Source: Chiloscyllium plagiosum
Lineage: Eukaryota
DNA length: 64,000 bases
Direction of reading: 5' to 3'
Assembly: GCF_004010195.1 (NCBI RefSeq)
Contig: NC_057719.1
Span: 27,199,623 to 27,263,622, forward strand
This document shows positions 4,417-60,098 of the stretch, piece after piece; the stretch's first letter is position 1, and each line of letters opens with the position of its first letter. The translations under genes were made by a program, and so were the position numbers. Below the pieces are notes generated by a model, which saw only the letters and a list, made by a program, of their open reading frames with translations, did no database searches and had not been told where the DNA came from.

Positions 4417-4741
4417 GGGCGGCACGGTGGCACAGTGGTTAGCACTGTTGCCTCACAGCGCCAGAGATCCGGGTTCAATTCCCGCCTCAGGGACTGACTG
4501 TGTGGAGTTTGCACGTTCTCCCCGTGTCTGCGTGGGTTTCCTCCGGGTGCTCCGGTTTCCTCCCACAGTCCAAAGATGTGCAGGGTCAGGTGAATTGGCC
4601 ATGCTAAATTGCCCGTAGTGTTCGGTAAGGGGTAAATGTAGGGGTATGGGTGGGTTCGCTTCGGCGGGTCGGTGTGGACTTGTTGGGCCGAAGGGGCTGT
4701 TTCCACACTGTAATGTAATCTGTAATCTGTAAATCTAATCT
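4417..4741 (+). mobile_element. tRNA-derived V-SINE (HE1-like)
   Basis: A box TGGCACAGTGG (4428-4438), B box GGTTCAATTCC (4472-4482), V-domain CTGTGTGGAGTTTGCACGTTCTCCCCGTG, CR1-like tail and TAATC repeats. Paralogues at 40551 and 59629. Confidence 0.9.
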
Positions 4742-26199: not shown

Positions 26200-26303
26200 G
26201 TTAGGGTTAAAGTTAGAGTAAGGGTCAGTGTTACAGTTAGGGTTAGAGTTGGGTTAGAGTTAAGATTAAAGTTAGGGTTAGAGTTAGGATTAGAGTTAAG
26301 ATA
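26200..26303 (+). repeat. Degenerate telomere-like (TTAGGG)n hexamer tract
   Basis: About 17 hexamer units (TTAGGG, TTAGAG, TTAAAG, TTAAGA), three of them perfect TTAGGG. Confidence 0.7.
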
Positions 26304-31974: not shown

Positions 31975-34900
31975 AACTAGGGCTGCAGACAGGGCTTTAA
32001 ACTGAATGGGATGGGGCAAGGGGTGAGTTATAGGGGAAATTAGAAAGTCCGTATTAAAGGAGGAGGTAAGAGTGCAGAACTCAGGAGAGGTTATTAAAAT
32101 CTCCAGTAAAGACCATCCAAAGACATTGTGGAATGTCTATGAGATGGCTTTTTGGAGCAGCTTGTGATGGAGCCCACTAGAGAACAGGCAATTCTGGATT
32201 TAGTGTTGTGCAGTGAGGCAGACTTGATAAGGGGACTAAAGGTGAAAGAATAGGACAGAGTGCATGGAAAGGGCTAGCAATCAAACTCCAAGCATACTGG
32301 GCAAATGAATGACAATGAGAAGAGGGACAGTTAATACAGGACTAAAGGTGTTATATCTGAATGCACACAGTGTAAGGAATAAAGTAAATGAGCTTGTGGC
32401 GCAGATTAAAATTGGCAGGTATGACGTGATGGGTATCACAGAGGTTACAAGGGGATCAGGATTGGGGGCTAAATATTCAAGGGTATACATCATATCAAAA
32501 AGATAGGTAGGTGGGCGGAGGGGGTTGGGTTGCCTTATTGGTAAGAAATTAAATTAGTAAGAAACAAAATAAGGTCAGATGGTGTAGAATCTGCGTAGGT
32601 AGAATTGAGGAACTGCAAAGGTAAAAATATCCATAGTTGGAATTATGTACAGGCCTCCAAACAATAGTCAGGAGCTGGGGCGCAAGATACTCCAGGAGTT
32701 AGAAATGATGTGTAGGAAAGGCGAAGTTACAGTAATCATGGGGGAGTTTCAATATGCAGGTGGGCTGGGAAAATCAGGTTGGCCGTGGATTGCAAGGAAA
32801 GGAATTTGTGGAATGTCTACGAGATGGCATTTTGGAGCAGCTTATGATGGATCCCACTAGAGAACAGGCAATTCTGGATTTAGTGCTGTGCAATGAGGCA
32901 GACTTGATAAGGGAGCTTAAGGTGAAGAAACCCTTAGGAGACAGTGATCATAATATGATTGAATTTACTCTGCAATTTTAGAGGGAGAAGATAGAATCAG
33001 AGGTAACAGTATTACAGCTGAATAAAGGCAACCACAGAGGCATGAGGGAGGAGCTGGATAGAATTGATTGGGAGAGGAGTCCAGCAGGAAAGACAATGGA
33101 ACAGCAATAGCAGGAGTTGCTGGGAGTAAATCAGGAGACAGCAGTGATTCATCCCGAGGAAAGGGAAGCATGGTGCAGGGAGGATGAGGCAACCGTGGCT
33201 GACTAGGGGATAGCAGAAAATCAAATGTGAAAGCATACAATGCGGCAAAGGGCAGTGGGGAACCAGAGGATTGGGAAGCTTACAAAGACCAATAGAGGGC
33301 AACAACAAAAGAAATAAGAAAGGAGAAGATTAAGTATGAGGGTAAGCTAGCCAGAAACGTAAGGGAAGACTGGAAGAATTTCTTTAGATATATAAAAGGG
33401 GCAAAAGTGGACATTGGGCTGCCAGAAAATGACACTGGAGAGATAGTAGTGGGGAACAAGAAAACGGCGAGGAACTGAATAATTACTTTGCATCAGACAT
33501 CACAGTGGAAAATACGAGTAACAGTCCAAACATTCAAGGGAACTGAGTATGGTGGTCATCACCAAGGAGAAGGTGCTAGAAAAACTGAATAGCCTGAAGG
33601 TGGCTAAATCACCTGAACCAGATGGACCACACCCCAGAGTTCTAAGGGAGATAGCTGAAGTGATAGCAAAGGCATTAGTGGTGATGTTTCAGAAATCACT
33701 AGAATGGGGGACAGTCCCAGAGGACTCGAAAATCGCTAATGTGACATCTGTTTTAAAAGGGAGTAAGGCTAAAGATGGAAAACTACAGCCAGATTAGCCT
33801 AACCTCAGTCATGGATAAGATCCTGGAATCCATTGCAAAGGATGAGATTTTTGAATACTTAATAAAATAGGGAAAAGTCAGTGTGGTTTCATTGAGGGGA
33901 GGTCACACCTGACAAATCTGCTAGAATTCTTTGAGGAAGTAATGTGCAGGTTAGACCAAGGAGAGCCAGTGGATGTTATCTACCTGGACTTCAAGAAGGC
34001 TTTGACAAGGTGCCACACAGGAGGCTACTGAGTAAGATAAGGGCCGATGGTGTGACAGGCAATTTATTAGCATGAATAGAAGCTTAGCTGTCTGGCAGAA
34101 AGCAGAGAGTGAGGATAAAAGGATGGCAGCTGGTGACGTGCAAGGCTCAGTGTTAGAGCCACAACTTTTCACTTTATACATTAACGATAAAGATGAAGGA
34201 ACTGAGGGCATTCTGGCGAGGTTTGCAGATGACTCAAAGTTAGGTAGTGTGACAGGTAGCATTGAGGAGGCAGGAAGGCTGTAGAAGAATTTGGACAGAT
34301 TAGGAGAGTGGGCAAAGAAGTGGCAGATGGTGTAGAACTTGGGAAAGTGTGAGATCATGCACTTTGGTAGGAAGAATCAAAGAATGGACTATTTGCTAAA
34401 TGGGGATAAAATTCAGAAGTCTGAAGTGCAATGAGACTTGTGAGTTCTAGTCCAGGATTCTCTCAAAGTAAACTTGCAGGTGAAGTCAGTAGTTGGGAAG
34501 GCAAATGCAATGATGGCATTTATTCTGGGAGTACTTGAATATAAAAGCAGGGACATACTTCTGAGGCTCTATATAGCTCTGGTCAGATCATATTTGGAGT
34601 ATTGTGTGCAGTTTTGGGCCCGCTATCTCAGGAAGGATGTACTGACCTTGGAGTGTGTTCAGAGGAGGTTTGCAAGAAAGGTCCCAGGAATGAAAAGCTT
34701 AACATATGAGAAACGTTTGAGGACTCTGGGTGTACATACTCAATGCAGTTTAGAAGGATGAGGTGGGGATCTAATTGAAACTTACAGAATACTGAATGGC
34801 CTGGACTGAGTAGACATTGGGAAGACGCTTTATTTGATAGGAGATACTAGGACCCAAGGGCACAGCCTTAGAGTAAAGTGAAGACATTCAGCCAGAGAGT

Positions 34901-35120
34901 GACGAATCCATGGAATTCATTGCCACAGAAGGCTGTGAAGGCCAGGTCATGGAGTGTATTTAAGACTGTGATTGATAGGTTCTTGAATATCCAGGGGATT
35001 AAGGGTCACAGGGATAAAGCAGGAGAAGGGGTTGAAAAACATATCAGCCATGATCGAATGGCAGAGCAGGCACAATGGGCTGAATGGTCTAATTTCTGCT
35101 CCTATGTCTTATAGCCTTAT
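31975..35120 (+). mobile_element. CR1 LINE, nearly complete ORF2 (APE + RT), disrupted
   Basis: LKVLYLNAHSVRNK, MYRPPNN, LGDSDHNMIEF, QGSVLEPQLF..FADDSKL and LYIALVRSYLEYCVQFW. Confidence 0.95.
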
Positions 35121-36738
35121 GGTTATGGCACAAGTAAACACTGGCCAGTTAAGCCTGAAGCCTGTTCACCTGCTTTCCTCACAAGCAAAGGATGAAAGGC
35201 ACAGACCAGGTCATTTGGCTGATCCAGTCCTCTAAACCAGCCAAACTTCCTCATCTTGAAAAGTGTGCCAAAATTAAAAGGTTAGTCAAGCTACAGCCTG
35301 ACAGTCATACTCAATCATATCTCTGACCCACTTTCCCAGACTCAATCACCATTCCTAGGCATATCTTGGGGAGGACACACCCAGAGGTAGTGACACAGTC
35401 ATGTACATAGAACATAGAACAATGTAGAACATAGAACAATACAGTGCAGTACAGGCCCTTCGGCCCTTGATGTTGCGCTGACCTGTGAAACTGATCTGAA
35501 GCCCATCTTACGTACACTATCCATTATTATTCGTATATTTATCTTTTGACCAGTTAAATGCCCTTAATGTTGCAAGCAGGGCATTCCACGCCTTTCCTAC
35601 TCTCTGAGTACTGAACTTACCTCTAACATCTGTCCTATATCTATGTCCCATCAGTTTAAAGCTATGTCCCCTCGTGCTAGCTGTCACCATCCAAGGAAAA
35701 AGGCTCTCATTGTCCACTCTATCTAATCCTCTGATCATCTTGTATGTCTCTATTAAATCACCTCTTAACCTTCTTCTCTCTAATAAAAACAGCCTTTCTT
35801 CATAAGATCTTCCCTCCATACCAGGCAACATCCTGCTAAATCTTCTCTGCACCCTTTCCAATGCCTCCATGTCTTAATGCAGCGACCAGAACTGTACACA
35901 ATACTCCAAGTGCAGCCTCACCAGAGTTTTGCACAGCTGCAGCATGACCTCATGACTCTGAAACTCAATCCCTCTACTAGCAAAAGCTAACACACCGTAC
36001 GCCTTCTTAACAACCCTATCAACCTGGGTGGCAACTTGCAGGGATCTATGCACATGGACATTGAGATCTCTGCTCATCCACACCACCAGGAATCTTACCA
36101 TTAGCCCAGTACTTTATATTCCTGTTACTCCATCCAAAGTGCATCACCTCACACTTTTCCACATTAAACTCAATTTGCCACGTCTCAGCCCAGCTCTGCA
36201 GCTTATCTATATCCCTCTGTAACCTGAAACATCCTTCTACACAGTCGACAACTCTATCAACTTCAGTGTCATCCGCAAATTTACGAACAAATCCTTCTTT
36301 GCCCTCATTTATAAAAATGATAAACAGCAGTGGTCCCAAAACAGATCCTTGCGGTACACCACTAGAACTGAACCCCACAATGAACATTTACCATCAACCA
36401 TCACCCTCTGTTTTCTTTCAGTTAGCTGATTTCTGATCCAAACTGCTAAATCACCTTTAATCCCATGCCTCTGTATTTTCTGCAATAGCCTTCCATGGGG
36501 AATATTTTCAAACGCTTTAGAGAAATCCATATACACCACATCAATCGTTTTACCCTCATCCACCTGTTTGGTCACCTTCTCAAAGAATTCAATAAGGTTT
36601 GTGAGGCACCACCTACCCTTCGCAAAACCATGTTGACTATCCCTTATCAGATTATTCCTTTTTAGATGATTATAAACCCTATCTCTTGTAATCCTTTGCA
36701 ACACTTTATCCACAACTGAAATAAGGCTCATTGGTCTA

Positions 36739-37644
36739 TTTTGAAACACTCACAAGAGTGCCCTTTTCGAGTCTTTACATCGCTCGTCGATGTTTTGGAC
36801 TCTCTAGCATGACCACAGGCCAAAGGCTGGGGTGGTATTGGTGTTATATGAGGCTCGGGTATTGGTGGTCCTCCATTAATCTGGAGTCAGACTGATCATG
36901 GTGTGGGTGGATTGGAGCCCCCATTTTTAAAAAAATTTTTATTTCATTTTTTGGTGGGGGTTGGCTGATCCTTGTCTCTGGCCGGAGGCGACTGGCGGTG
37001 GTTTGCTCACTTATCACTGAAGAGTTGTAACAATTCAAGTATCAGTGATAACGTGAGTCTTGATGTCATTTGGGCGAAGGTATTCAATCGTTCTATGCCG
37101 AGGAATTTCCTGAGGCTGTTATTCAGGCCCAGTCACTTGCCTCATGCACCCATCCCGAAGCCGAAGTGCTTGGGTTCCGAGCCTCCCGACAATTCCGCTA
37201 TCTCAGCGTTAAGGTGTTTATATTTTCGCTTTACTCACACATTCCATTTCCAGTGCTTTACTGTCATTCTCGTACTGCACTGTGACATCTACTACCGCGA
37301 TCTTGTGATCTTTCTTGAATATAGGATCAGGTTTCCAAAGTGAGCCACCGTTTGCAAATAATCAGACTCCACGTACAATGTCCAGCCGTACTTACTGACA
37401 TGTTTTTGCAACTGGTCAGCGATTTTGTTATGGCGTTCTTGACAAATGGGGAGCATCCTGCGATGTGCGAGATGGTCTCGACTGCCGTCTCACACCTTCG
37501 GCATATTTTGTTTCTATTCAGTCTTCCTCTACATAGTGTGGCTCTTGTCAGGTATAGATTACACCACAGGAGCAAGCTGTTTATGAACAGAGAGGATTTC
37601 CATTGATCTGCTGCTTTTAGCCATGAATTAGAGATTTTGTCATG
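36739..37644 (-). mobile_element. R2 retrotransposon 3' fragment, part 2: CCHC knuckle, restriction-like endonuclease and 3' UTR
   Basis: HDKISNSW..NLYLTRATLCRGR..CRRCETAVETISHIAGC. After frameshifts: KPDPIFKKDHKIAVVDVTVQYE, KYKHLNAEIAEL..FGFGMGA*GK, FAQMTSRLTLSLILELLQLFSDK* (stop 37007-37009). A ~268-nt 3' UTR ends in AAAA. Confidence 0.88.
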
Positions 37645-39720
37645 GGGCAAGGGCAATCATAATGCAATTAAGCAAGAATTAGGATGCATAGAATGGGGTA
37701 GCAAAATGCAGGGATGGGGACAATCAAAATATGGACCTGGTTTAAGGAACAGATATTGCGTGTCCTTGATAGGTATGTCCCTGTCAGGCAGGAAGAAAAT
37801 GATAAGGTAAGGGAACTATGGTTTACTACAGAAATTGCATCTCCTGTTACGAAGAAGAAGGAGGCTTATGTGTTGATGAGGCAAGATGGTTCAGATGAGG
37901 CGATGGAGAGCTACAGATCAGCTAGGAAGGATTTAAAGTGAGAGTTAAGAAGAGCAAAGAGAGAACACGAGGAGTCTTTAGTAAATAGAATAAAGGAGAA
38001 CCCTAAAGCTTTCTACGGGTATGTGAGGAATAAGAGGATTACTAGGGTAGGAATATGGCCAGTCAAAGACAGAAGTGGGAAGTTGAGTGTGGACCCTGTG
38101 GAGATCGGAAAGGTGCTAAACAAACATTTCTCATCGGTTTTCACTCAGGAAAAGGAGAATATTGTAGAGGAGAAGAGGATGAGATATTAGACTAGAAAGG
38201 ATCGAGGTTAGGTATGAACAGGTGTTATCAATTCTGGAAGGAGTGAAAGTAAACAAGTCCCCCTGGGCCAGATGGGATTTATCTGAGGATTCTCTGGGAA
38301 GCTAGGGAGGAGATAGCAGAGTCTTTGGCTTTGATATTTGAGTCGTCATTGTCTACAGATTTGGTACCAGAGGACCAAATGTTGTGCCCTTGTTCAAGAA
38401 GGGCAGTAGAGATGACCCAGATAATTATAGTCCGGTGAGCCTTACTTTTGTTGTAGGAAAGGGTTTGGAAAGGATTATAAGAGACAAGATTTATAATCAT
38501 CTAGCAAGCAACAATTTGATTTCAGATAGTCAACATGGTTTCGTCAAGGGCAGGTCATGTCTCACAAACCTCATTCAGTTTTTTGAGAAGGTGACCACGC
38601 ATGTCGATGAGGGTAAGGCAGTTGACGTGGTATACATGGACTTCTGTAAAGCCTTTGATAAGGTTTCACATGGAAGGCAGAGAGTATTGGTTGATGGAAA
38701 ATATTCAGCCTGGAGTACGGTTACTAGTGGTGCTCCACAAGGATCTGTTTTGGGACCACTGCTGTTTGTCATTTTTATAAATGACTTAGACACAGGCAGA
38801 GGTGGATGGATTAGTAAGTTTGCAGATAACACTAAAGTCGGTGGAGTAGTGGACAGTGTGGAAGAATGTTAAAGGTTGCAGGGGGACTTGGGATAAACAG
38901 CAGAATTGGACTGAGAGGTGGCAAATGGAGTTCAATACAGCTAAATGTGAGGTAATGCACTTTGGGAAGATTAACAGGAAGGCAGAATATTGGGTCGTTG
39001 GAAAGATTCTTGGTAGTGTGGATGTGCAGAGGGATCTTGGAGTCCATGTACATAGATCCTGAAAATTGCCACCCAGGTGGACAGTGCTGTTAAGAAGGCA
39101 TACGGTGTGTTAGGTTTCATTCGTAGAGGGATTGAGTTCCGGAGCCGCAATATCATGCTGCAACTATACAAAACGCTAGTGCAGCCACACTTGGAATATT
39201 GTGTACAGTTCTGGTCCCCATATTTCGGGAAGGATGTGGAAGCATTGGAAAAGGTGCAGAGGAGATTTACCAGGATGTTGCCTGGTCTGAAGGGAAGGTC
39301 TTATGAGGAAAAGCTGAGAGACTTGGGTCAGTTCTCATTGGAAAGAAGAAGGCTAAGAGGGGATTTGATAGAGACATAGAAGATGATCAGAGGATTAGAT
39401 CGGGTAGACAGTGAAATACTTTTCCTAGGATGATGATGTCAGCTTGTACGAGGGGGCATAACTACAAATTGAGGGGTGATAGATTTAAGACAGATGTCAG
39501 AGGCAGGTTCTTTACGCAGAGAGTGGTAAGGGTGTGGAAGGCCCTACCTGCTAATATAGTCAACTCAGCCACATTAGGGAGATTTAAACAATTCTGGGGT
39601 AAGCACATGGATGATTTTGGGATAGTGTAGGGGGATGAGCTGAGAATAGTTCACAGGTCGGCGCAACATCGAGGGCCGAAGGCCTGTTCTGCACTGTATT
39701 GTTCTATTTTCTATGTTCTA
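37643..39720 (+). mobile_element. 5'-truncated CR1 LINE inserted into the R2 fragment
   Basis: Starts WGKGNHNAIKQELGCIEWG. RT SGAPQGSVLGP..KFADNTKV. Ends TTCTATTTTCTATGTTCTA at 39720. Confidence 0.95.
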
Positions 39721-39900
39721 GAGTACTGGATGCCGTCCCTTTGACATTGCAGGTTTTGCCACTTTTTAAATTCCTACTCTCTCCACCCTGCATGCTTGTT
39801 GGGTGGTTTCTGTCGCCCAGCGTCTGCCTCCTGGAATGCTGGCATGATGGCCTGGATGTGGGTCATCAGGTCCATTTCCTCTTCGCCGCTGTTTTGGCTG
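39721..39900 (-). mobile_element. R2 retrotransposon 3' fragment, part 1
   Basis: A minus frame reads ..NKHAGWRE*EFKKWQNLQCQRDGIQYS, the WRxxEFxxWxxLxxQGxG block that directly precedes DKISNxW in vertebrate R2 proteins. Confidence 0.8.
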
Positions 39901-40550
39901 CAGGGTTGTCTCTATTCCCTTGAACAAGGGAACAATATTTGCTATCCTCCAGTCTTCTGGCACTATTCCTGTAGACAAAGACGACATAAAGAACAAAGCC
40001 AAAGGCTCTGCAATCTCCTCCCGAGCTTCCCAGAGAATCCTAGGACAAATCCCATCCAGCCCAACAGACTTATCTATTTTCACACTTTCCAGAATTGCTA
40101 ACACCTCCTCCTTGTGAACATTAACTCTGTCCAGCCTACTAGCCTGTATCTCAGTATTTTCCTCAATAACATTGTCTTTTTCCTGTGTGAATATTGATGA
40201 AAAATATTAATTTAGCACTTCTCCTATCTCCTCAGACTCCACGCACAACTTCGCACTACTGTCCTTTACAGGCCCTAATCTTACTCTAGTCATTCTTTTA
40301 TTCCTGACATAGCTATAGAAAGCTTTAGGGTTTTCCTTGATCCTACCTGCCAAAGGCTACTCATGCCTCCTTCTGCCTCTTCTTCGCTCACTCTTTAGGT
40401 CCTTCCTGGCTAACTTGTACCACTCAAGTGCCCTAACTGAGCCTTCATGTCTCATTCTAACATAAGCCTCCTTCTCCCTCTTGACAAGAGTTTCAACTTC
40501 TTTAGTAAACTACAGTTCCCTCGCTTGACCACTTGACCACTTCATCCACT

Positions 40551-40870
40551 GGGGCGGCACGGTGGCACAGTTGTTAGCACTACTGTCTCACAGCACCAGA
40601 GACCCGGGTTCAATTCCCGCCTCAGGCTACTGACTGTGTGGAGTTTGCACATTCTCCCCGTGTCTGTGTGGGTTTCCTCCGGGTGCTCCGGTTTCCTCCC
40701 ACAGACCAAAAATGCGCAGGTTAGGTGAATTGGCCATGCTAGTGTTAGGTGAAGGGATAAATGTAGGGGAATGGGTCTGGGTGGGTTGCGCTTCGGCAGG
40801 TCGGTGTGGACTTGTTGGGCCGAAGGGCCTGTTTCCACACTGTAAGTAATCTAATCTAAAAAAAAACAAA
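40551..40870 (+). mobile_element. V-SINE (HE1-like) nested in CR1
   Basis: A and B boxes, V-domain and tail as at 4417. CR1 sequence resumes at TCCCTGCCTGACAGG. Confidence 0.9.
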
Positions 40871-43800
40871 TCCCTGCCTGACAGGTACATTCTTGTCAAG
40901 GACATGCTGTAGCTGTTCTTTGAATAAGCTCCACATTTCAATTGTGCCCATCCCATGCAGTTTTCTTCCCCATCCTAAGCATCCTAAATCTTGCCTAATC
41001 GCATCATAGTTGCTTTTCTCCCAGCTATAATTCTTGCCCTGCGGTATATACGTATCCCTCTCCATTGCTAAAGTAAACATAACCGAATTGTGGTCACTAT
41101 CACCAAAGTGCTCACCTAACTCCAAATCTAACACATGGCTGGGTGCATTACCCAATACCAAATCCAATGTGGCCTCGCCCCTTGTTCGCCGACCTACATA
41201 CTGTGTCAGGAAACCCTCCTGCACACATTAGACAAATACTGACCCATCTAAGGTACTCAAACTACAGCGTTTCCAGTCAATATTAGGAAAGTTAAAGTTC
41301 CTCCATAACAACTACCCTGTTACTTTTAACCCTATCCAGAATCACCTTTGCAATCCTCTCCTCTACATCTCAGGAACTTTTCGGAGGCCTATAGAAAACT
41401 CCCAACTGGGTGATTGTTCCTTTCCTGTTTCTAACCTCAGCCATTACTAATTCAGTAGACGAGTCCTCAAATGTCCTTTCTGCCACCGTAATACTGTCCT
41501 TGACTAACAATGCCACACCTCCCCTTCTTTTACCATCTTCTCTGTTCTTATTGAAGCATCTACATCCTGGAACCTGCAACAACCATTCATGTCCCTGCTC
41601 TATCCATGTCTCCGAAATGGCCACAACATTGAAGCCTCGGGTACCAATCCATGCTGCAAGTTCACCCACCTTATTCTGGATTCTCCTGGCATTGAAGTAG
41701 ACATACTTCAAACCACCTTCCTGCCTGCTGGTACACTCCTACAACTTTGAAACCTTATTCATGAATTCACTCCCCTCAACCTCCTGTACACTGGAGATAC
41801 AATTCTGGTTCCGATCCCCTGCTGAATTAGTTTAAAACCTCCTGAACAGCATTAGCAAACCTCCTCCTTCCCCATCCCAGGGTCCCTTCTGGTTCAGGTG
41901 TAGACCATCCTGTTTGTAGAGGTCCCACCTACTCCAGAATGAGCCCCAATTATCCAGGTATCTGAATCTCTCCCTCCTGCACTACCCCTGTCGCCACATG
42001 TTCAGTTGCTCTCTCTCCCTATTCCTCATCTCGCTAGCACGTGGCACAGGTAACAAACCAGAGATAACAACTCTGTTTGTTCTAGCTCTAAGCTTCCACC
42101 CTAGCTCCCTGAATGTCTGCCTTACATCGCCACCCTGTTTCCTATCTATACCATTAGTGCCTATGTGGACCACAACTTGGGACTGCTCCCCCTCCCCTCA
42201 AAGATCCCCAAAACACAATCCATGGCATCACAGACCCTGGGACCTCGGAGGCAACACACCAACTGTGTCTCTCTCGTTCTCACAGAACCTCCTGTCTGTC
42301 TCTCTAACTATGAAGTCTGCATTGACTGATGCTCTACACCTCTCCCCCCTTCCATTCTGAGCAACAGGGACAAACTCTGTGCCAGAGACCTGTGCCCCAG
42401 TCTTACTCCTGTTAAGTTGTATCCCCCAACAGTATCCAAAATGGTATACTTGTTACTGAGGGGAATGGTCACATGGGATCCCTGCACTGTCTGCCTGGTC
42501 CCTTTCTGTCCCCTGGCTGTAACCCATCTACCTTCTTCCTATACTTGAGGTGTAACTACCCCCTTGTAATTCTTTTCAATTACTCCCTCAACCTCCTGAA
42601 CAATCTGAAGTTCATCCAGCTCCAGCTCCAGTTCCCTAACACGGTTTCCGAGGAATTGGAGTTGAGTGCACTTCCTGCAGATGAAGTCAGTGGGGACACT
42701 AGTGGTAACAATTGCCTCCCACATTCTACAGGAGGAGCACTCAACTGCCCTACCATCCATTCCCACTGTTCTGAATTCCCAAAGAGACTATTGAAAAAAA
42801 AACTAGTAATCTTACCGAATCAGTGCGCAGAACTTGTTTTTGGTTAGAGGAGGATGGGCGGGAGACACTACCTAAGTAGTGCTTTGGGTAAAGCAACCAC
42901 CGAAATATATTACCCCATTTATTCAGCCACCCTGCGTCCGCTCCTGTTCAGCGTGTGTTCCACCTAATCACGCGGTAAGCATTTTATAGGATTTATTTAC
43001 CTTCCCGGCAGCCCCTTGGTCCTCACTCTCACAGTTCCTGCTGGAAAAATGGTACAGTTGGGAATCAGTGGCCTTACAAATCATCAACATTGACTCAGAC
43101 TCCAGATGTTCTTATTGCATTATGTCAAAGCCAGGCAAAGAATCCTCTTGCTGATTATCACTTCCTGGTGTTAACTGAACCCTTGATGTTGAGAACCACT
43201 TGGATGCTGCACTGCAGCAAAGACACAGTGTACTCAAGGCAGGAGATTTCTTCATCCATCATCAATAATGAGTGTGTACCACAACAAAAATCATTACTGA
43301 CTGTGCTGGGTGAGCTCCATCAGCCTTATCTATGTGCAGTTTGAATGTGCAGATTGAAACAACCAACAAGAGGGAAAAGTTTATATTGCCTCTTCCTCAC
43401 CAGATAGAAATGACCACTACACAACCTGTGGAAATAAAGCCCTGCCTTCACACTGAGGATACTGTCCATCTTGTTGTGTCGTGATACCTCCAGGCTAAAT
43501 TATACAGATTTCAAAGTGAGCTAGCAGCTCAAGCTGAGCCATCAGGAGCCACTGAGACCATCAGCAGCAGAACTGTTTTCCATCACAATCTGTCAACCCA
43601 TATCCAGCATATTCCTCACTCTACCACTACCATCAAGCCTGGGAACCAATCTAGTTTTAAGAAAATGTGAAGCACAGTCCAGAAGTATCACCATGCACCC
43701 ATTTGTACTCCAGAGCAATCTCTATCATTATAATGATAATGTGGAAAATCGCATGGGGTTGTCACCAAAGATTAATTTGATTACATCACGTACAACCTTT

Positions 43801-44181
43801 TAGTTTCCAAAAAAGAAATATTTGAAAGCATGCTCATGATGCTAAAAACATGCTCACTGATGCTTAGTTTAGGTTCTGTCAGGACCACAGCTCTCCAAGT
43901 CTCATTACAGCCTTGGTGCAAGCATGAATAATGGAGTTAAACTTGAGTTGAGACACAAGACTGAGTATCTTGGGCAAGTGAGACATCAAAGAGTCTTTGT
44001 GAAACTGAAGTTAAATGGGAACTTTAGGGAAATCTTGCCACTGGCTTGAGTCAAGCTTAATAGAAAGGATGATGGTTATGGTCATTAAAGGCTAGTCACC
44101 TCAGCCCTAGACATCACTATGGAAGTTCCTCAGGGTAATGTGATAGGACTAGCTAAATTCAGTTACTTCATAAATGATGAT

Positions 44182-45127: not shown

Positions 45128-45320
45128 CACAGTCCATCTCCACAGTCTGTCTGCACAGTCTGTCTGCACAGTCTTTCTCCACAATCGGTCTGCACAGGCT
45201 GTCTCCACAGTCTGTCTGTACAGTCTGTCTGCGCAGTCTTTCTCCACAGTCTGTCTGCACAGGCTGCCTCCACAGTCTGCGCAGTCTGTCTGTGCAGTCC
45301 GTCTGTACAGGCTGTGTGCA
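45128..45320. repeat. Minisatellite built on CACAGTCTGTCT(G/C) units
   Basis: Direct tandem periodicity of about 13 bp. Confidence 0.85.
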
Positions 45321-45429: not shown

Positions 45430-45850
45430 ACTGGGCTGTTGATCATTGGCGTCCTCACTCCAGCCACTGGTCACTGCCGTCCCCGCTCTGGCTACTAGTC
45501 ACTGGCAGCACTGGCATCCCCACACTGGCTGCTGGTCACTGGCATGACCACTATAGCCACTGGTCACTGGCATCCCTGCTCTGACTGCTGGTCACTGGCA
45601 TCCCCACACTGGCTGCTGGTCACTGGTGTCTCCACACTGGCTGCTGGTCACTGGCTTCCCTGCTCTTGCTGCTGGTCACTGGCATCCCCACACTGGCTGC
45701 TGCTCACTGGTGTCCCCACACTGGCTGCTGGTCACTGGTGTCCCCACACTGCCTGCTGCTCACTGGCATCCCCACGCTGGCCTGCTGGTCACTGGCATCC
45801 CCACGCTGGCTGCTGGTGGCTGGTGTCTCTGTTCTGGTCATTGGCATCTC
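45430..45850. repeat. 28-bp GC-rich minisatellite CTGGCTGCTGGTCACTGGCATCCCCACA
   Basis: Units start at 45525, 45609, 45637, 45693 and 45721 (multiples of 28 apart). Confidence 0.9.
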
Positions 45851-49819: not shown

Positions 49820-52800
49820 TAGAACATAGAACATAGAACAATACAGCGCAGAACAGGCACTTCGGCCCTCGATGTTGCGCCGACCTGTGAACTATTCTCA
49901 GCTCGTCCCCCTACACTATCCCAAAATCATTCATGTGCTTATCTAAGGACTGTTTAAATCCCCCCAATGTGGCTGAGTTGACTACACTAGCAGGCAGGGC
50001 ATTCTACGCCCTTCCCTCTCTCCGCGTAAAGAACCTGCCTCTGATATCTGTCTTAAATCTATCACCCCTCAATTTGTAGTTATGCCCCCTCATATACTCT
50101 GACATCATCACCCTAGGAAAAAGACTTTCACTGTCTACCCTATCTCATCCTCTGATCATCTTCTATGTCTCTATCAAATCCCCTCTTAGCCTTCTTCTTT
50201 CCAACCTGAAGTCTCTCAAGTCTCTCAAACATTCCTCATAAGACCTTCCCTCCAGACCAAGCACCATCCTGGTAAATCTCCTCTGTACCTTTTCCAATTC
50301 TTCCACATCCTTCCCGAAATATGACGACCAGAACTGTACACAATATTCCAAGTCTGGCCGCACCAGCGTTTTATATAGTTGCAGCATGATATTGCAGCTC
50401 CGGAACTCAATCCCTCTACGAATGAAACCTAACACACCGTATGCCTTCTTAACAGCACTGTCCACCTGGGTGGCAATTTTCAGAGATCTATGTACATGGA
50501 CTCCAAGATCCACACTACCAAGAATCTTTCCATTGACCCAGTACTCTGCCTTCCTGTTATTCTTCCCAAAGTGCATTACCTCACATTTATCTGCATTGAA
50601 CTTCATTTGTCACCTCTCAGCCCAATTCTGCAGTTTATCCAAGTCCCCCTGCAACCTGTAACATTCTTCCACACTGTCCACTACTCCATCTACTTTAGTG
50701 TCGACTGCAAATTTACTAATCTATCCACCTATACCTGCGTCTAAGTCATTTATAAAAATGACAAACAGCAGTGGTCCCAAAAAGAAATCTTTGTGGCACA
50801 CCACTAGTAATCAGATTCCAGGCTGAATATTTTCCATCAACTACCACTCGCTACCTTCTTACAGAAAGCATTTCTCATCCAAACTGCTAAACTACCCTCA
50901 ATTCCATGTCTCTGCATTTTCTCCAACAGCCTACCATGTGGAACCTTATCAAAGACTTTATTGAAGTCCACGTATACCATGTCAACTGCCCTACCCTCAT
51001 CTACATGCTTGATCACCTTCTCAAAAAACTAAATGAGGTTTATTAGACACGGCCTGCCCTTGACAAAACCATATTGACTATCTGAAATCAAATTGTTGCT
51101 TGCTAGATGATTATTAATCTTATCTCTTATAATCCTTTCCAAAACCTTTCCTACAACAGAAGTAAGGCTTACTGGCCTATAATTACCTGGGTCATCTCTA
51201 CTGCCCTTCTTGAACAAGGACACACCATTTGCAATCCTCCAGTCCTCTGGTACCAAACTTGTAGACAATGATGATTCAAATATCAAAGCCAAAGGCTCTG
51301 CTATCTCCTCCCTAGCTTCCCAGAGAATTCTCGGATAAATCCCATCTGGCCCAGGGGGACTTGTCTACTTTCACTCCTTCCAGAATTGATAACACCTGTT
51401 CGTACCTAACCTCGATCCTTTTTAGTCTAATATCTCATCCCTCATTCTTCTCCTCTACAATATTCTCCTTTTCCTGAGTGAAACCCGATGAGAAATGTTC
51501 GTTTAGCATCTCTCCGATCTCTACAGGGTCCACACTCAACTTCCCACTTCTGTCTTTGACTGGCCCTATTCCTACCCTAGTCATCCTCTTATTCCTCACA
51601 TACCCGTAGAAAGCTTTAGGGTTCTCCTTTATTCTATTTGCTAAAGACTCCTCGTGTCCTCTCTTTGCTCTTCTTAACTCTCACTTTAAATCCTTCCTAG
51701 CTGATCTGTAATGCTCCATCGTCTCATCTGAACCATCTTGCCTCAACAACACATAAGCCTCCTTCTTCTGCTTAACAAGAGATGCAATTTCTGTTGTAAA
51801 CCATAGTTCCCTTACCTTATCACTTCCTCCCTGCCTGACTGGGACATACCTATCAAGGACACACAATATCTGCTCCTTAAACCAGCTTTACATTTCTATT
51901 GTCTGCATCCCCTGTATTTTTCTACCCCATTCTATGCATCCTAATTCTTGCCTAATCGCATTATAATTGCCTTTGCCCCATTGATAACTCTTGACCTGTG
52001 GCATGTACCTATCCCTTTCCATTGCTAAACTAAACATAACTGAATTATGGTCACTCTCTCCAAAGTGCTCACCTGGTTCATTACCAAGCACCAGATCCAG
52101 TGTGGCCTCCCCTCTTGTCGGCCCTTCGACAAACTGTGTCAGGGAACCCTCCTGTACACATTGGACAAAAACTGATCCATCCAACGTACTAGAGTTATAG
52201 TATTTCCAGTCAATGTTGGGGAAGTTAAAGTCCCCCATAATGACCACCCTGTTCCTTTCACTCCTACCCAGAATAATTTTGCTAATCCTCACTTCCACCA
52301 CACTGGAGGCCTATTAAGAAAAACCCAGCACTGTGACTTCTCCTCTCCTGTTTCTTGCCTGTTCTTAATGAAAGATCTAAACCCTGGAACCTGCAACGTC
52401 CATTCCTCATCCTGCTCTAGTCATGACTCCGAAATGGCCACAAATGACTCCGAAGTCCCAGGTACCTATCCATACTGTGTCAGGAAACCCTCCTGTACAC
52501 ATTGGACAAAAACTGATCCATCCAACGTACTAGAGTTATAGTATTTCCAGTCAATGTTGGGGAAGTTAAAGTCCCCCATAATGACCACCCTGTTCCTTTC
52601 ACTCCTACCCAGAATAATTTTGCTAATCCTCACTTCCACCACACTGGAGGCCTATTAAGAAAAACCCAGCACTGTGACTTCTCCTCTCCTGTTTCTTGCC
52701 TGTTCTTAATGAAAGATCTAAACCCTGGAACCTGCAACGTCCATTCCTCATCCTGCTCTAGTCATGACTCCGAAATGGCCACAAATGACTCCGAAGTCCC

Positions 52801-52926
52801 AGGTACCTATCCATGCTGCAAGCTCACCTACCTTATTTCGGATACTTATGGCGTTGAAGTAGACACACTTCAAACCACTTTGCTGTCTGCCAGCACATTC
52901 CTGTGACCCTGAAATCCTGTCCCTGA
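49820..52926 (-). mobile_element. CR1 LINE ORF2 (APE + RT), same subfamily as 37643-39720
   Basis: GDFNFPNIDW, FGESDHNSV, DPGNYRPVSLTS, LYKTLVRPDLEYC and a (TTCTATG)n tail. Confidence 0.95.
52133..52814. repeat. 341-bp near-perfect tandem duplication within the CR1 APE region
   Basis: 52133-52473 is repeated at 52474-52814. I saw one difference (AGGG/AGGA). Confidence 0.9.
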
Positions 52927-55937: not shown

Positions 55938-58900
55938 GCACCGATCACCACAGTACCTCAATAGACACTGTCGACCACTGATCACCACAGCACCCCACTA
56001 GTCACTGTCTACCACTGATCACCACAGCACGCCACTAGTCACTGTCTACCACTGATCACCACAGCGTCCAACTAGTCACTGTCTACCACTGATCACCACA
56101 GCATCCAACTAGTCACTGTCTACCACTGAACATCACAGCATCCCACTAGTCACTGTCTACCACTGATCACCACAGCGCCCCACTAGTCACCATCTACCAC
56201 TGATCACCACAGCACCCAACTAGTCACTGTCTACCACTAATCACCAACGCATTCTACTAGTCACTGTGTACCACTGATCACCACAGCATCCCACTAGTCA
56301 CTGTCTACCACTGTTCACCACTGGTCACCACTAGTTACTTTCTACCACTGATCACCACAGCAACCCACCAGACCCTGTCTACCACTGATCACCACAGCAC
56401 CACAATAGTCACTGTCTACCACTGATCACCACAGCACCCGACTAGTCGCTGTCTACCACTGATCACCACAGCACCCCACTAGTCACTGTCTACCACTGAT
56501 CACCACAGCATCCCACTAGTCACTGTCTACCACTGTTCACCACTGGTCACCACTAGTTACTTTCTACCACTGATCACCACAGCAACCCACCAGATCCTGT
56601 CTACCACTGATCACCACAGTACCATACGAGTCACCGTCTACCACTGATCACCACAGCACACGACTAGTCGCTGTCTACCACTGATCACAACAGCACCCCA
56701 ACAGTCACTATCTACCACTGATCACCACAGCACCCCACTAGTCACCGTCTACCACTGATCACCACAGCACCCGACTAGTCACTATTTACAACAGATCACC
56801 GCAGCACCTGACTAGTCACTGTCTAAAAGCTGATCACCACTGCACCCCACTAGTCACTGTATACCACTGATCACCACAGCGTCCCACTAGTCACTGTCTA
56901 CCACTGATCACCACAGCACCACAACAGTCACTGTCTGCCACTGATCACCACAGCAACCCACTAGTCACTGTCTACAACTGATCACCACAGCACCCCAACA
57001 GTTACTGTCTACCACTGATCACCACAGCGTCCCACTAGTCACTGTCTACCACTGATCACCACAGCACCACAACAGTCACTGTCTGCCACTGATCACCACA
57101 GCACCCCAACAGTCACTGTCTACCACTAATCACCGCAGCATCCCACTAGTCACTGTCTACCACTAATCACCACAGCACCCAACTAGTCACTGTCTACCAC
57201 TGATCACCACAGCACCCGACTAGTCACTGTCTACCACTAATCAACANNNNNNNNNNNNNNNNNNNNNNNNNNNNNNNNNNNNNNNNNNNNNNNNNNNNNN
57301 NNTCACCACAGCGTCCCACTGGTCACTGTATTCCACTGATCACCACAGTGTCCCACTAGTCACTGTCCACCACTGTTCACCACTGGTCACCACTAGTTAC
57401 TGTCAACCACTGATCACCACAGCGTCCCACTGGTCACTGTATTCCACTGATCACCACAGTGTCCCACTAGTCACTGTCTACCACTGATCACCGCAGCAAC
57501 CTACTAGTCACTGTCTACCACTGATCACCACAGCACCCCAACAGTCTCTGTCTACCACTGATCACCACAGCGTCCCACTTGTCAGTGTATTCCACTGATA
57601 ACCACAGTGTCCCACTAGTCACTGTCTACCACTGATCACCACAGCAACCTACTAGTCACTATCCACCACTGATCACCACAGCACCGCAACAGTCACTGCC
57701 TACCACTGATCACCACAGCAACCCACTAGTCACTGTCTACCGCCGATCACCACAGCACCCCACTAGTCACTGGCTACCACTGATCACCACAGTACCCCAA
57801 CAGTCACTGTCTACTACTGATCACCACAGCAACCCACTACTCACTGTCTACCACTGATCACCACAGTGTCCCATGAGTCACCGTCAACCACTGATCACCA
57901 CAGCGTCCCACTAGTCACTGTATTCCACTGATCACCACAGTGTCCCACTAGTCACTGTCTACCACTGATCACCGCAGCAACCTACTAGTCACTGTCTACC
58001 ACTGATCACCACAGCACCCCAACAGTCTCTGTCTACTCTGATCACCACAGCGTCCCACTTGTCAGTGTATTCCACTGATCACCACAGTGTCCCGCTAGTC
58101 ACTGTCTACCACTGATCACCACAGCAACCTACTAGTCACTATCCACCACTGATCACCACAGCACCGCAATAGTCACTGTCTACCACTGATCACCACAGCA
58201 ACCCACTAGTCACTGTCTACCGCCGATCACCACAGCAACCCACTAGTCACTGTCTACCACTGATCACCACAGTATCCCATGAGTCACCGTCAACCACTGA
58301 TCACCACAGCGTCCCACTAGTCACTGTATTCCACTGATCACCACAGTGTCCCACTAGTCACTGTATTCCACTGATCACCACAGTGTCCCACTAGTCACTG
58401 GCTACCACTGATCACCACAGTACCCCAACAGTCACTGTCAACTACTGATCGCCACAGCACCCGACTAGTCACTGTCTACTACTGATCACAACAGCAACCC
58501 ACTAGTCACTGTCTACCACTGATCACCACAGCACCCCAACAGTCACTGTCTACCACTGATCACCACAGCATCCCAAAAGTCACTGTCTACTACTGATCAC
58601 CACAGCATCCCACGAGTCACTGTCTACCACTGATCACCACAGCGTTCCACTAGTCATTGTCTACCACTGATCACCAGAGCACCCGACTAGTCACTGTCTA
58701 CCACTAATCACCACAGCACCCCACTAGTCACCTTCTACCACTGATCACCACAGCACCCCATTAGTCACTGTCTACCACTGATCACCACAGCACCCGACTA
58801 GTCACTGTCTACCACTGATCACCACAACGCCCAACTAGTCACTGTCTACCACTGATCAACACAGCGTCCCACTAGTCACTGTCTATTAATAATCACCATG

Positions 58901-59215
58901 GTACCCCACTAGTCACTATCTACCACTGATCACCACAGCACCCCACTAGTCACTGTCTACCACTGATCACCACAGCACCCCACTAGTCACCATCTACCAC
59001 TGATCACCACAGCACCCCACTAGTCACAGCCTACCATTGATCACCACAGCACCCCAATGGTCACTGCCTACCACTGATCACCACACTAGTCAATGTCCAC
59101 CATTGATCACCACATCACCCCACTAGTCACTATCTACCACTGATCACTGCAGTGCCCCAATAGTCACTGTCTACCACTGATCACCACAGCACCCAAACAG
59201 TCACTGTCTACCACT
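55938..59215. repeat. 37-bp minisatellite CCACTGATCACCACAGCACCCCACTAGTCACTGTCTA (~88 units as assembled)
   Basis: Head-to-tail 37-bp periodicity with no spacers. Interrupted by an N gap. Confidence 0.97.
57247..57302. other. Assembly gap (56 N)
   Basis: Run of n inside the minisatellite. Confidence 1.
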
Positions 59216-59628: not shown

Positions 59629-59931
59629 GGGCGGTTAGCACTGCTGCCTCACAGCGCCAGAGACTTGGGTTCAATTCCCGCCTCTGGCAACTGTCTGTGT
59701 GGAGTTTGCACATTCTCCCCGTGTCTGCGTGGGTTTCCTCCAGGTGCTCTGGTTTCCTCCCCACAGTCCAAAGATGAGTAGGTTAGGTAAATTGGCCATG
59801 CTAAATTGCCCGTAGTGTCAGGTGAAGGGATAAATGTGGGGGAATGGGTCTGGGTGGGTTGATCTTCGGAGGGTCGGTGTGGACTTGTTGGGCCGAAGGG
59901 CCTATTTCCACACTGTGGGTAATCTAATCTG
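59629..59931 (+). mobile_element. V-SINE (HE1-like) with the A box deleted, inside an old CR1 3' remnant
   Basis: Starts GGGCGGTTAGCAC and lacks the TGGCACAGTGG segment. B box and V-domain are present. TSD AACAT at 59624-59628 and 59932-59936. Confidence 0.88.
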
Positions 59932-60098
59932 AACATATTGAATAATTACCTGAAGGGAAATACAAAAAGAGTTATGAGAAAGGGAGTAGGACAACCTAAG
60001 TTGTATCTGCAAAAAGTCCCTGTTGGTACAACTGTTTGAATGAACTTTGCGGTAACCATTCTCCAATGCTATAAACAGTATGACGCTTACTCAAGCAA

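Follow-up and report, generated by a model that had tools for sequence, protein, structure and literature searches.

A dead, 5′-truncated lineage-A R2 element outside rDNA in Chiloscyllium plagiosum, probably a fossil off-target insertion

R2 retrotransposons are co-transcribed with the pre-rRNA of their hosts. They carry no promoter of their own (PMC2718515), and copies that stray from rDNA are therefore dead ends. Such copies occur in five Drosophila species, 1 to 2% diverged, and truncated R2 5′ ends usually show upstream deletions and microhomologies (PMC2718515). Avian R2 off-target sites have little identity to the target save for a primer-complementary stretch immediately 3′ of the nick; off-target events make up about 1% and 0.1% of junctions (PMC11371274). 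Nonspecific families have been described in flatworms (R2NS-1_SMed, clade D, and R2NS-1_CSi, clade C; PMC5035012), and R2-like nonspecific elements in a cockroach (PMC7650587). A 2026 review holds that target specificity is likely to be graded and has been little quantified, and warns that extant locations mislead, since copies are lost from rDNA and from other parts of the genome at different rates (PMC13580325, section 7). Chondrichthyes have R2s of both lineage A and lineage D according to Hassan et al. (2026; PMC13188248), who used a pipeline that kept top hits and sought 28S flanks; a count of strays is absent from the parts of that paper covered here. Its R2-1_STig from zebra shark (Table S2, row 168) is full-length, with 1,317 amino acids and 28S sequence on both sides; the label R2-1_STig in its supplementary file 12 belongs to the sequence called R2-2_STig in Table S2. 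R2-1_CPu and R2-1_CPl, from two bamboo sharks, are also 28S flanked, with a visible N terminus that differs from that of the subfamily presented here, and the 28S cells are empty for white shark (1 of 13 chondrichthyan rows). We found no published description of dispersed R2 copies in sharks in a search of mostly open-access literature.

We present here an R2 fragment from a 64,000-nucleotide stretch of Chiloscyllium plagiosum DNA (NC_057719.1, positions 27,199,623 to 27,263,622, forward strand), called the window below. Between positions 36739 and 39900, two minus-strand pieces (39900-39721 and 37645-36739) are one 5′-truncated, dead lineage-A R2, inserted into one LINE and split by another. 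Both LINEs we take to be CR1, named from their motifs and a short tandem tail rather than from a repeat-library match. The features are as follows.

35415-36738, minus strand: host CR1 LINE, 3′ half, from the reverse transcriptase (RT) region to the tandem tail (RVT_1, E value 2.5e-14; 71 to 75% identity to sister copies)
36729-36738, minus strand: first 10 host bases at the R2 3′ junction, 8 of 10 equal to 28S downstream of the R2 nick (sequence comparison)
36739-37006, minus strand: R2 3′ UTR, complete to the element terminus (match to a Table S2 3′ UTR; fold)
37007-37645, minus strand: R2 C-terminal coding piece, with CCHC at 37503-37453, PD..D, KYKHL, and a stop at 37009-37007 (phmmer, tblastn)
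37646-39720, plus strand: nested 5′-truncated CR1 LINE, opposite to R2 (RVT_1, E value 1.1e-15; 90 to 91% identity to window 49820-51981)
39721-39900, minus strand: R2 5′ piece, the linker upstream of the zinc knuckle (tblastn with P0001, 39863-39705, 64%; translation)
39901-42428, minus strand: host CR1 LINE, 5′ half, from the APE endonuclease to the RT start (Exo_endo_phos, E value 7.2e-6; collinearity)

The 105-residue translation from 37644 gave three PDB matches with phmmer, all of them R2 proteins (best E value, 1.7e-9), and the endonuclease piece gave four, three of which were R2 and the fourth a thioredoxin-like protein (E value, 0.28). A CCHC knuckle followed by a PD-(D/E)xK-type endonuclease, the C-terminal arrangement of the R2 clade, is present; these matches uphold the preliminary description, which was made from the letters alone and had recognized that layout as an R2 C terminus. 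Pfam zf-RVT scored below the Pfam cut-off (E value, 6e-4). Translation located every motif previously placed on the minus strand: WRE*EFKKWQNLQCQRDGIQY, ending at 39723; HDKISNSW, from 37644; the endonuclease motif KPDPIFKKDHKIAVVDVTVQYE (PD..D), at 37334-37269; and KYKHL, at 37225-37211.

The two pieces had been joined into one element, and homologous shark proteins do continue across the break: by tblastn, P0001 residues 93-145 align with the upper piece and 143-215 with the lower, across 39705/37644, and P0003, P0004, and P0005 likewise run across it. Both pieces were drawn correctly, except that base 37645, which lies in a microhomology between R2 and the nested CR1, had been left out; it belongs to R2, where it keeps the pieces in frame. 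The alignments of P0003, P0004, and P0006 begin at 39905-39911, and on these protein alignments the 5′ boundary may lie as far as 39905, through microhomology with the host. The upper piece holds one in-frame stop (39776-39774) and the lower piece two, making three in total, and tblastn places frame changes in the lower piece near 37435, 37366, 37239, and 37225. At the last three positions, the window copy carries indels relative to other R2 copies in reads and contigs.

Shark proteins came first in the homologue searches (2 of 22, 12 of 359, and 9 of 1,500 candidates). The 12 include ten from C. punctatum and one from Scyliorhinus, and ten further relatives that were looked up include six from C. 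punctatum, one from Scyliorhinus, and one from Carcharodon. An RT domain is present in relatives P0004, P0005, P0006, and P0022. P0028 (1,169 amino acids) was rejected as a zebra-finch protein and is an Astyanax protein. In a tree of the window read-through and 47 hand-chosen proteins of roughly 160, with no named non-R2 or lineage-D outgroup, the window R2 groups with ten C. punctatum proteins to which it is 64 to 83% identical (clade support 100/99). That clade nests in a 100/100 clade of 19 rows, which holds all named shark proteins and two others. The best PDB matches, being R2 proteins, agree with the R2 assignment. Together with a DNA match to a 28S-flanked R2, the PDB matches make R2s the closest relatives, rather than R4, NeSL/Utopia, HERO, or CRE, within a comparison set that held no named R4, NeSL, HERO, or Utopia. 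Lineage A is supported by proxy, through the shark relative P0005, which scored 552, 551, and 510 bits against three lineage-A structures (zebra finch, turtle) and 230 bits against a 1,114-amino-acid silkmoth-type protein. The resemblance to avian clade-A R2 noted at the outset fits as to lineage, but the closest relatives are shark R2s, and the turtle structure 9nl2 (P0025) is 38% identical to the window R2. The lineage-A structures 9nl2 (which we take to be the turtle protein PlaMe), 9nl3, and 9dou (R2Tg) align with it over the DxISN(W) linker, the CCHC knuckle, and KPD..VVDVT. Unlike them, the window copy has no zinc fingers, Myb domain, or RT and, without RT, is immobile.

The family is already catalogued in sharks, as its 3′ end matches that of R2-1_STig (PMC13188248, Table S2): window positions 36855-36739 are identical by eye at 95 of 117 bases, including a 27-nucleotide identical block, and in both elements the last hairpin stands equally far from the junction. 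The comparison covered 13 chondrichthyan rows, of which five have a 3′ UTR; that of R2-1_STig is the shortest and is whole, and a shared terminus is possible for three of the other four, whose ends fell outside the comparison. The R2-1_STig row shows the three N-terminal zinc fingers of lineage A (CCHH, CCHC, CCHH), and its N terminus matches C. punctatum P0019, P0018, and P0006 of the window's subfamily (both by eye). The element had been read as ending in coding sequence, a stop codon, a 3′ UTR, and AAAA; the stop and UTR hold, while the AAAA is the element's own end, in register with R2-1_STig. A poly(A) tail was rejected, as these bases align with the R2-1_STig terminus.

The last 120 nucleotides or so of the UTR fold into hairpins (z = −2.04; 12 of 200 shuffles as good). 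The sole run of five mismatches to R2-1_STig covers the loop of the predicted terminal hairpin together with the closing pair of its stem, which is still able to pair in both elements. Majority read variants at 36763, 36811, 36824, and 36838 shift the family toward the zebra-shark letters. The middle of the UTR (36860-36947) is variable among copies, with several X5 contigs skipping 68 to 180 bases, and the proximal UTR, which the C-terminal extension of P0069 matches by eye, is unlike that of R2-1_STig; both observations suggest UTR turnover within the subfamily. The window copy and R2-1_STig therefore share a UTR terminus, but the window copy is 1.1 kb long, dead, and placed in a CR1, with another proximal UTR.

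Three layers are stacked at the locus: from oldest to youngest, the minus-strand CR1, the R2 insertion, and the plus-strand CR1. Two sister copies elsewhere in the window are 71 to 75% identical to the host CR1, which follows their order on either side of R2; a SINE-like repeat (40552-40860) interrupts its 5′ half. An empty-site consensus was taken from reads of uninserted sister CR1s, which gave 206 and 200 loose ends at 36739. At the entry site, between 39901 and 36738, six host bases are missing, or seven should the final A belong to R2. The nested CR1 has a short tandem tail at 39720 and no target-site duplication; a search for duplications around both insertions returned only chance matches of 4 to 6 nucleotides. 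The locus is present in organism B with both junctions (X5 records 9 and 16, with 13 differences in 325 bases and 14 in 296, about 4 to 5%), and both insertions therefore predate the split between organisms A and B.

The window contains other repeats. The SINE-like repeat has three copies of about 310 bp, 87% alike (40552-40860, 4417-4728, and 59634-59933); no tRNA gene was called in them, and presumably they resemble the shark HE1 SINE. A near-perfect 341-bp tandem duplication (52133-52818; 99%) in the APE region of a CR1 copy is either a recent duplication or an assembly artefact. A 37-bp unit is tandemly repeated at 55939-59215 (89 copies, 82% matches), a related-looking 28-bp array lies at 45509-45817, a 13-bp array at 45128-45320, and a degenerate telomere-like hexamer array of about 17 copies at 26200-26298. 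Overall, 41% of the window matches a repeat elsewhere in it, and only three stop-to-stop frames reach at least 170 amino acids (two in LINEs and one in a tandem repeat), with no long coding frame.

A canonical R2 copy has 28S rDNA on both flanks, which is not the case here. No Rfam family matched the whole window at gathering score or the region 33000-44000 at an E value of at most 1, and two 20-nucleotide 28S target motifs had no match in the window at up to three mismatches, confirming that no rDNA flanks the fragment. The host sequence upstream of the insertion has little likeness to 28S. At the 3′ junction, where the element end is aligned to R2-1_STig, the first ten host bases match the 28S decamer in register at 8 of 10 positions. 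Counting both strands of the window, 71 of 127,982 positions reach at least 8 of 10 (0.055%). The CR1 consensus differs at one base, giving 7 of 10, a level that 567 window positions reach (0.44%). This likeness suggests off-target priming; it comes from a single junction, the only one read letter by letter, and does not by itself prove a rule.

An insertion with a small deletion and no target duplication could also arise if an rDNA-inserted R2 were captured at the DNA level, by recombination or break repair, with no reverse transcription at this site. We consider this very unlikely, since the piece ends exactly at the 3′ terminus, is 5′ truncated, and lacks a 28S tail, with host sequence continuing in register beyond it, which is the pattern of target-primed reverse transcription. 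Another reading makes the CR1 site a recurrent secondary target, in which an abundant repeat offers a 28S-like decamer; the 7-of-10 consensus and the hundreds of reads over the empty site fit it. X5 records 10 and 11 hold two other R2 3′ ends, followed by 378 and 516 bases that do not fit this CR1 flank, and the R2 pieces have no second copy within the 64-kb window, though it has several CR1s; we accordingly regard a recurrent CR1 target as highly improbable.

Copy number was estimated from two raw-read runs of organism A, using 1.93 Gb from each; copies less than 80% alike would have been missed. Depth within the R2 piece, averaged over 26 bins, was 11.2 in one run and 8.3 in the other, peaking at 22.4 and 16.8, compared with 260 to 400× over the CR1 flanks. 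For an assumed 3- to 5-Gb genome, these depths give 13 to 29 copy-equivalents by the mean and 26 to 58 at the peaks; published carpet-shark values are 3.79 to 5.51 pg (PMC11024215). At a single position, as many as 31 distinct contigs in X1 and 30 in X5 share a letter that differs from the window, a count in which alleles may appear twice. Reads less than 95% alike to the window numbered 764 of 798 and 681 of 712, CR1 flank reads included, and the stray copies are old and diverged, mostly by 5 to 20%. The read query extended about 40 bp into CR1 at either end, and most listed loose ends are CR1 reads; among the 24 of 248 loose ends listed for organism A, none was an R2 end flanked by 28S, and the known member at the 28S site is R2-1_STig in zebra shark. 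X5 records 10 and 11 have a depth like that of the orthologous locus, and record 10, whose alignment goes three bases past the R2 end, may retain a decayed 28S tail. The window's subfamily may be extinct from bamboo-shark rDNA.

C. punctatum has 15 proteins of the subfamily, ten assigned by the tree and five because they resemble P0001 or P0002. They lie on 14 scaffolds between 58 kb and 6.4 Mb long, which we infer from their size and gene models not to be rDNA arrays; P0045 and P0059 of this species fall outside the subfamily. Related strays occur in Scyliorhinus, Mustelus, and Carcharodon, which with the others span three shark orders. Two R2 C-terminal fragments lie in host gene models, P0003 (Mustelus asterias, zinc-finger array, with an open stretch of about 290 residues) and P0017 (C. 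punctatum, MPN domain, spliced); these fusions are probably annotation artefacts of intronic strays. A search for host-derived contigs with R2 flanks confirmed none of 20 pattern matches in viral contigs and none of 95 and 84 in metagenome contigs.

The preliminary description had offered an off-target event or a loss of rDNA specificity. The off-target part fits the junction; the event is not singular, however, there being tens of diverged copies. Such numbers would also fit an R2 subfamily that had relaxed or lost its 28S specificity in sharks and inserted widely, with a short TAG-like preference left. The 13 to 29 copy-equivalents, the 31 and 30 contigs, the 15 C. punctatum proteins on 14 scaffolds, the strays in three further genera, and the white-shark row without 28S flanks all count toward such a loss. 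On the other side, the closest catalogued member, R2-1_STig, sits precisely in 28S; the window junction keeps its 8-of-10 target likeness; the copies are diverged, unlike R2NS copies, which are more than 98% identical to their consensus (PMC5035012); and the caution that present locations reflect differing loss rates applies (PMC13580325). We think relaxed specificity unlikely on this balance. The flatworm R2NS families share with the shark R2 many copies outside rDNA, but theirs are young, with no rDNA targeting, whereas the shark element belongs to vertebrate lineage A, its reads are mostly less than 95% alike, its tree tips are long, and it has a known 28S-inserted relative. As for many copies with unrelated flanks, there are tens of diverged copies here, on 14 scaffolds in C. 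punctatum, and flank letters for one copy.

We favor, as the probable though by no means certain origin, an off-target event, now fossil, of a lineage-A shark R2 that resembled R2-1_STig and had the usual 28S specificity; leakage from rDNA would have been followed by preservation. An R2 copy resident in rDNA would have been co-transcribed with pre-rRNA. Its protein would then have primed reverse transcription within an old CR1, at a point where the bases downstream are similar to those of the 28S target, with the 28S-derived 3′ tail of the template presumably pairing with the primer, as in the avian system (PMC11371274). Synthesis would have halted at a length of some 1.1 kb; joining of the 5′ end entailed the observed loss of six or seven host bases and no duplication. 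Lacking RT and promoter, the copy would have been dead on arrival, would have decayed, and would have been split by the younger CR1 that is observed there. If such leaks recurred while rDNA copies were purged by array turnover and strays persisted, a few dozen copies might result. A rough check with assumed numbers (one insertion per thousand generations, 1% off target, a few million generations) yields tens fixed. The Drosophila strays and avian off-target insertions are likewise incomplete copies outside rDNA with likeness just downstream of the nick (PMC2718515, PMC11371274), but the shark strays are tens in number, mostly 5 to 20% diverged, and spread over three orders, where those of Drosophila are few and 1 to 2% diverged. 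We count against the leak from rDNA that a 28S-resident source of the subfamily in organism A is not among the listed loose ends, that the 28S-flanked bamboo-shark elements seem to belong to a different subfamily, that host bases upstream of the insertion hardly resemble 28S, and that tens of copies exceed the few Drosophila strays.

Taken alone, the insertion in the window is a dead repeat without evident function, and its value is that of one data point. Gene insertion directed to rDNA makes use of lineage-A R2 proteins, whose off-target rules derive from a small number of cell-culture events (PMC11371274). Tens of natural off-target junctions seem to be preserved in shark genomes, and tabulating them would give an evolutionary off-target motif and indicate whether the shark R2 is looser. 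A more speculative proposal, which we hold to be doubtful, is that lineage-A R2 has unusually loose targeting across three shark orders, as a partial generalist that still hits 28S. If true, this would be the first vertebrate R2 of that kind, and the strays would form a natural catalogue of primable sites.
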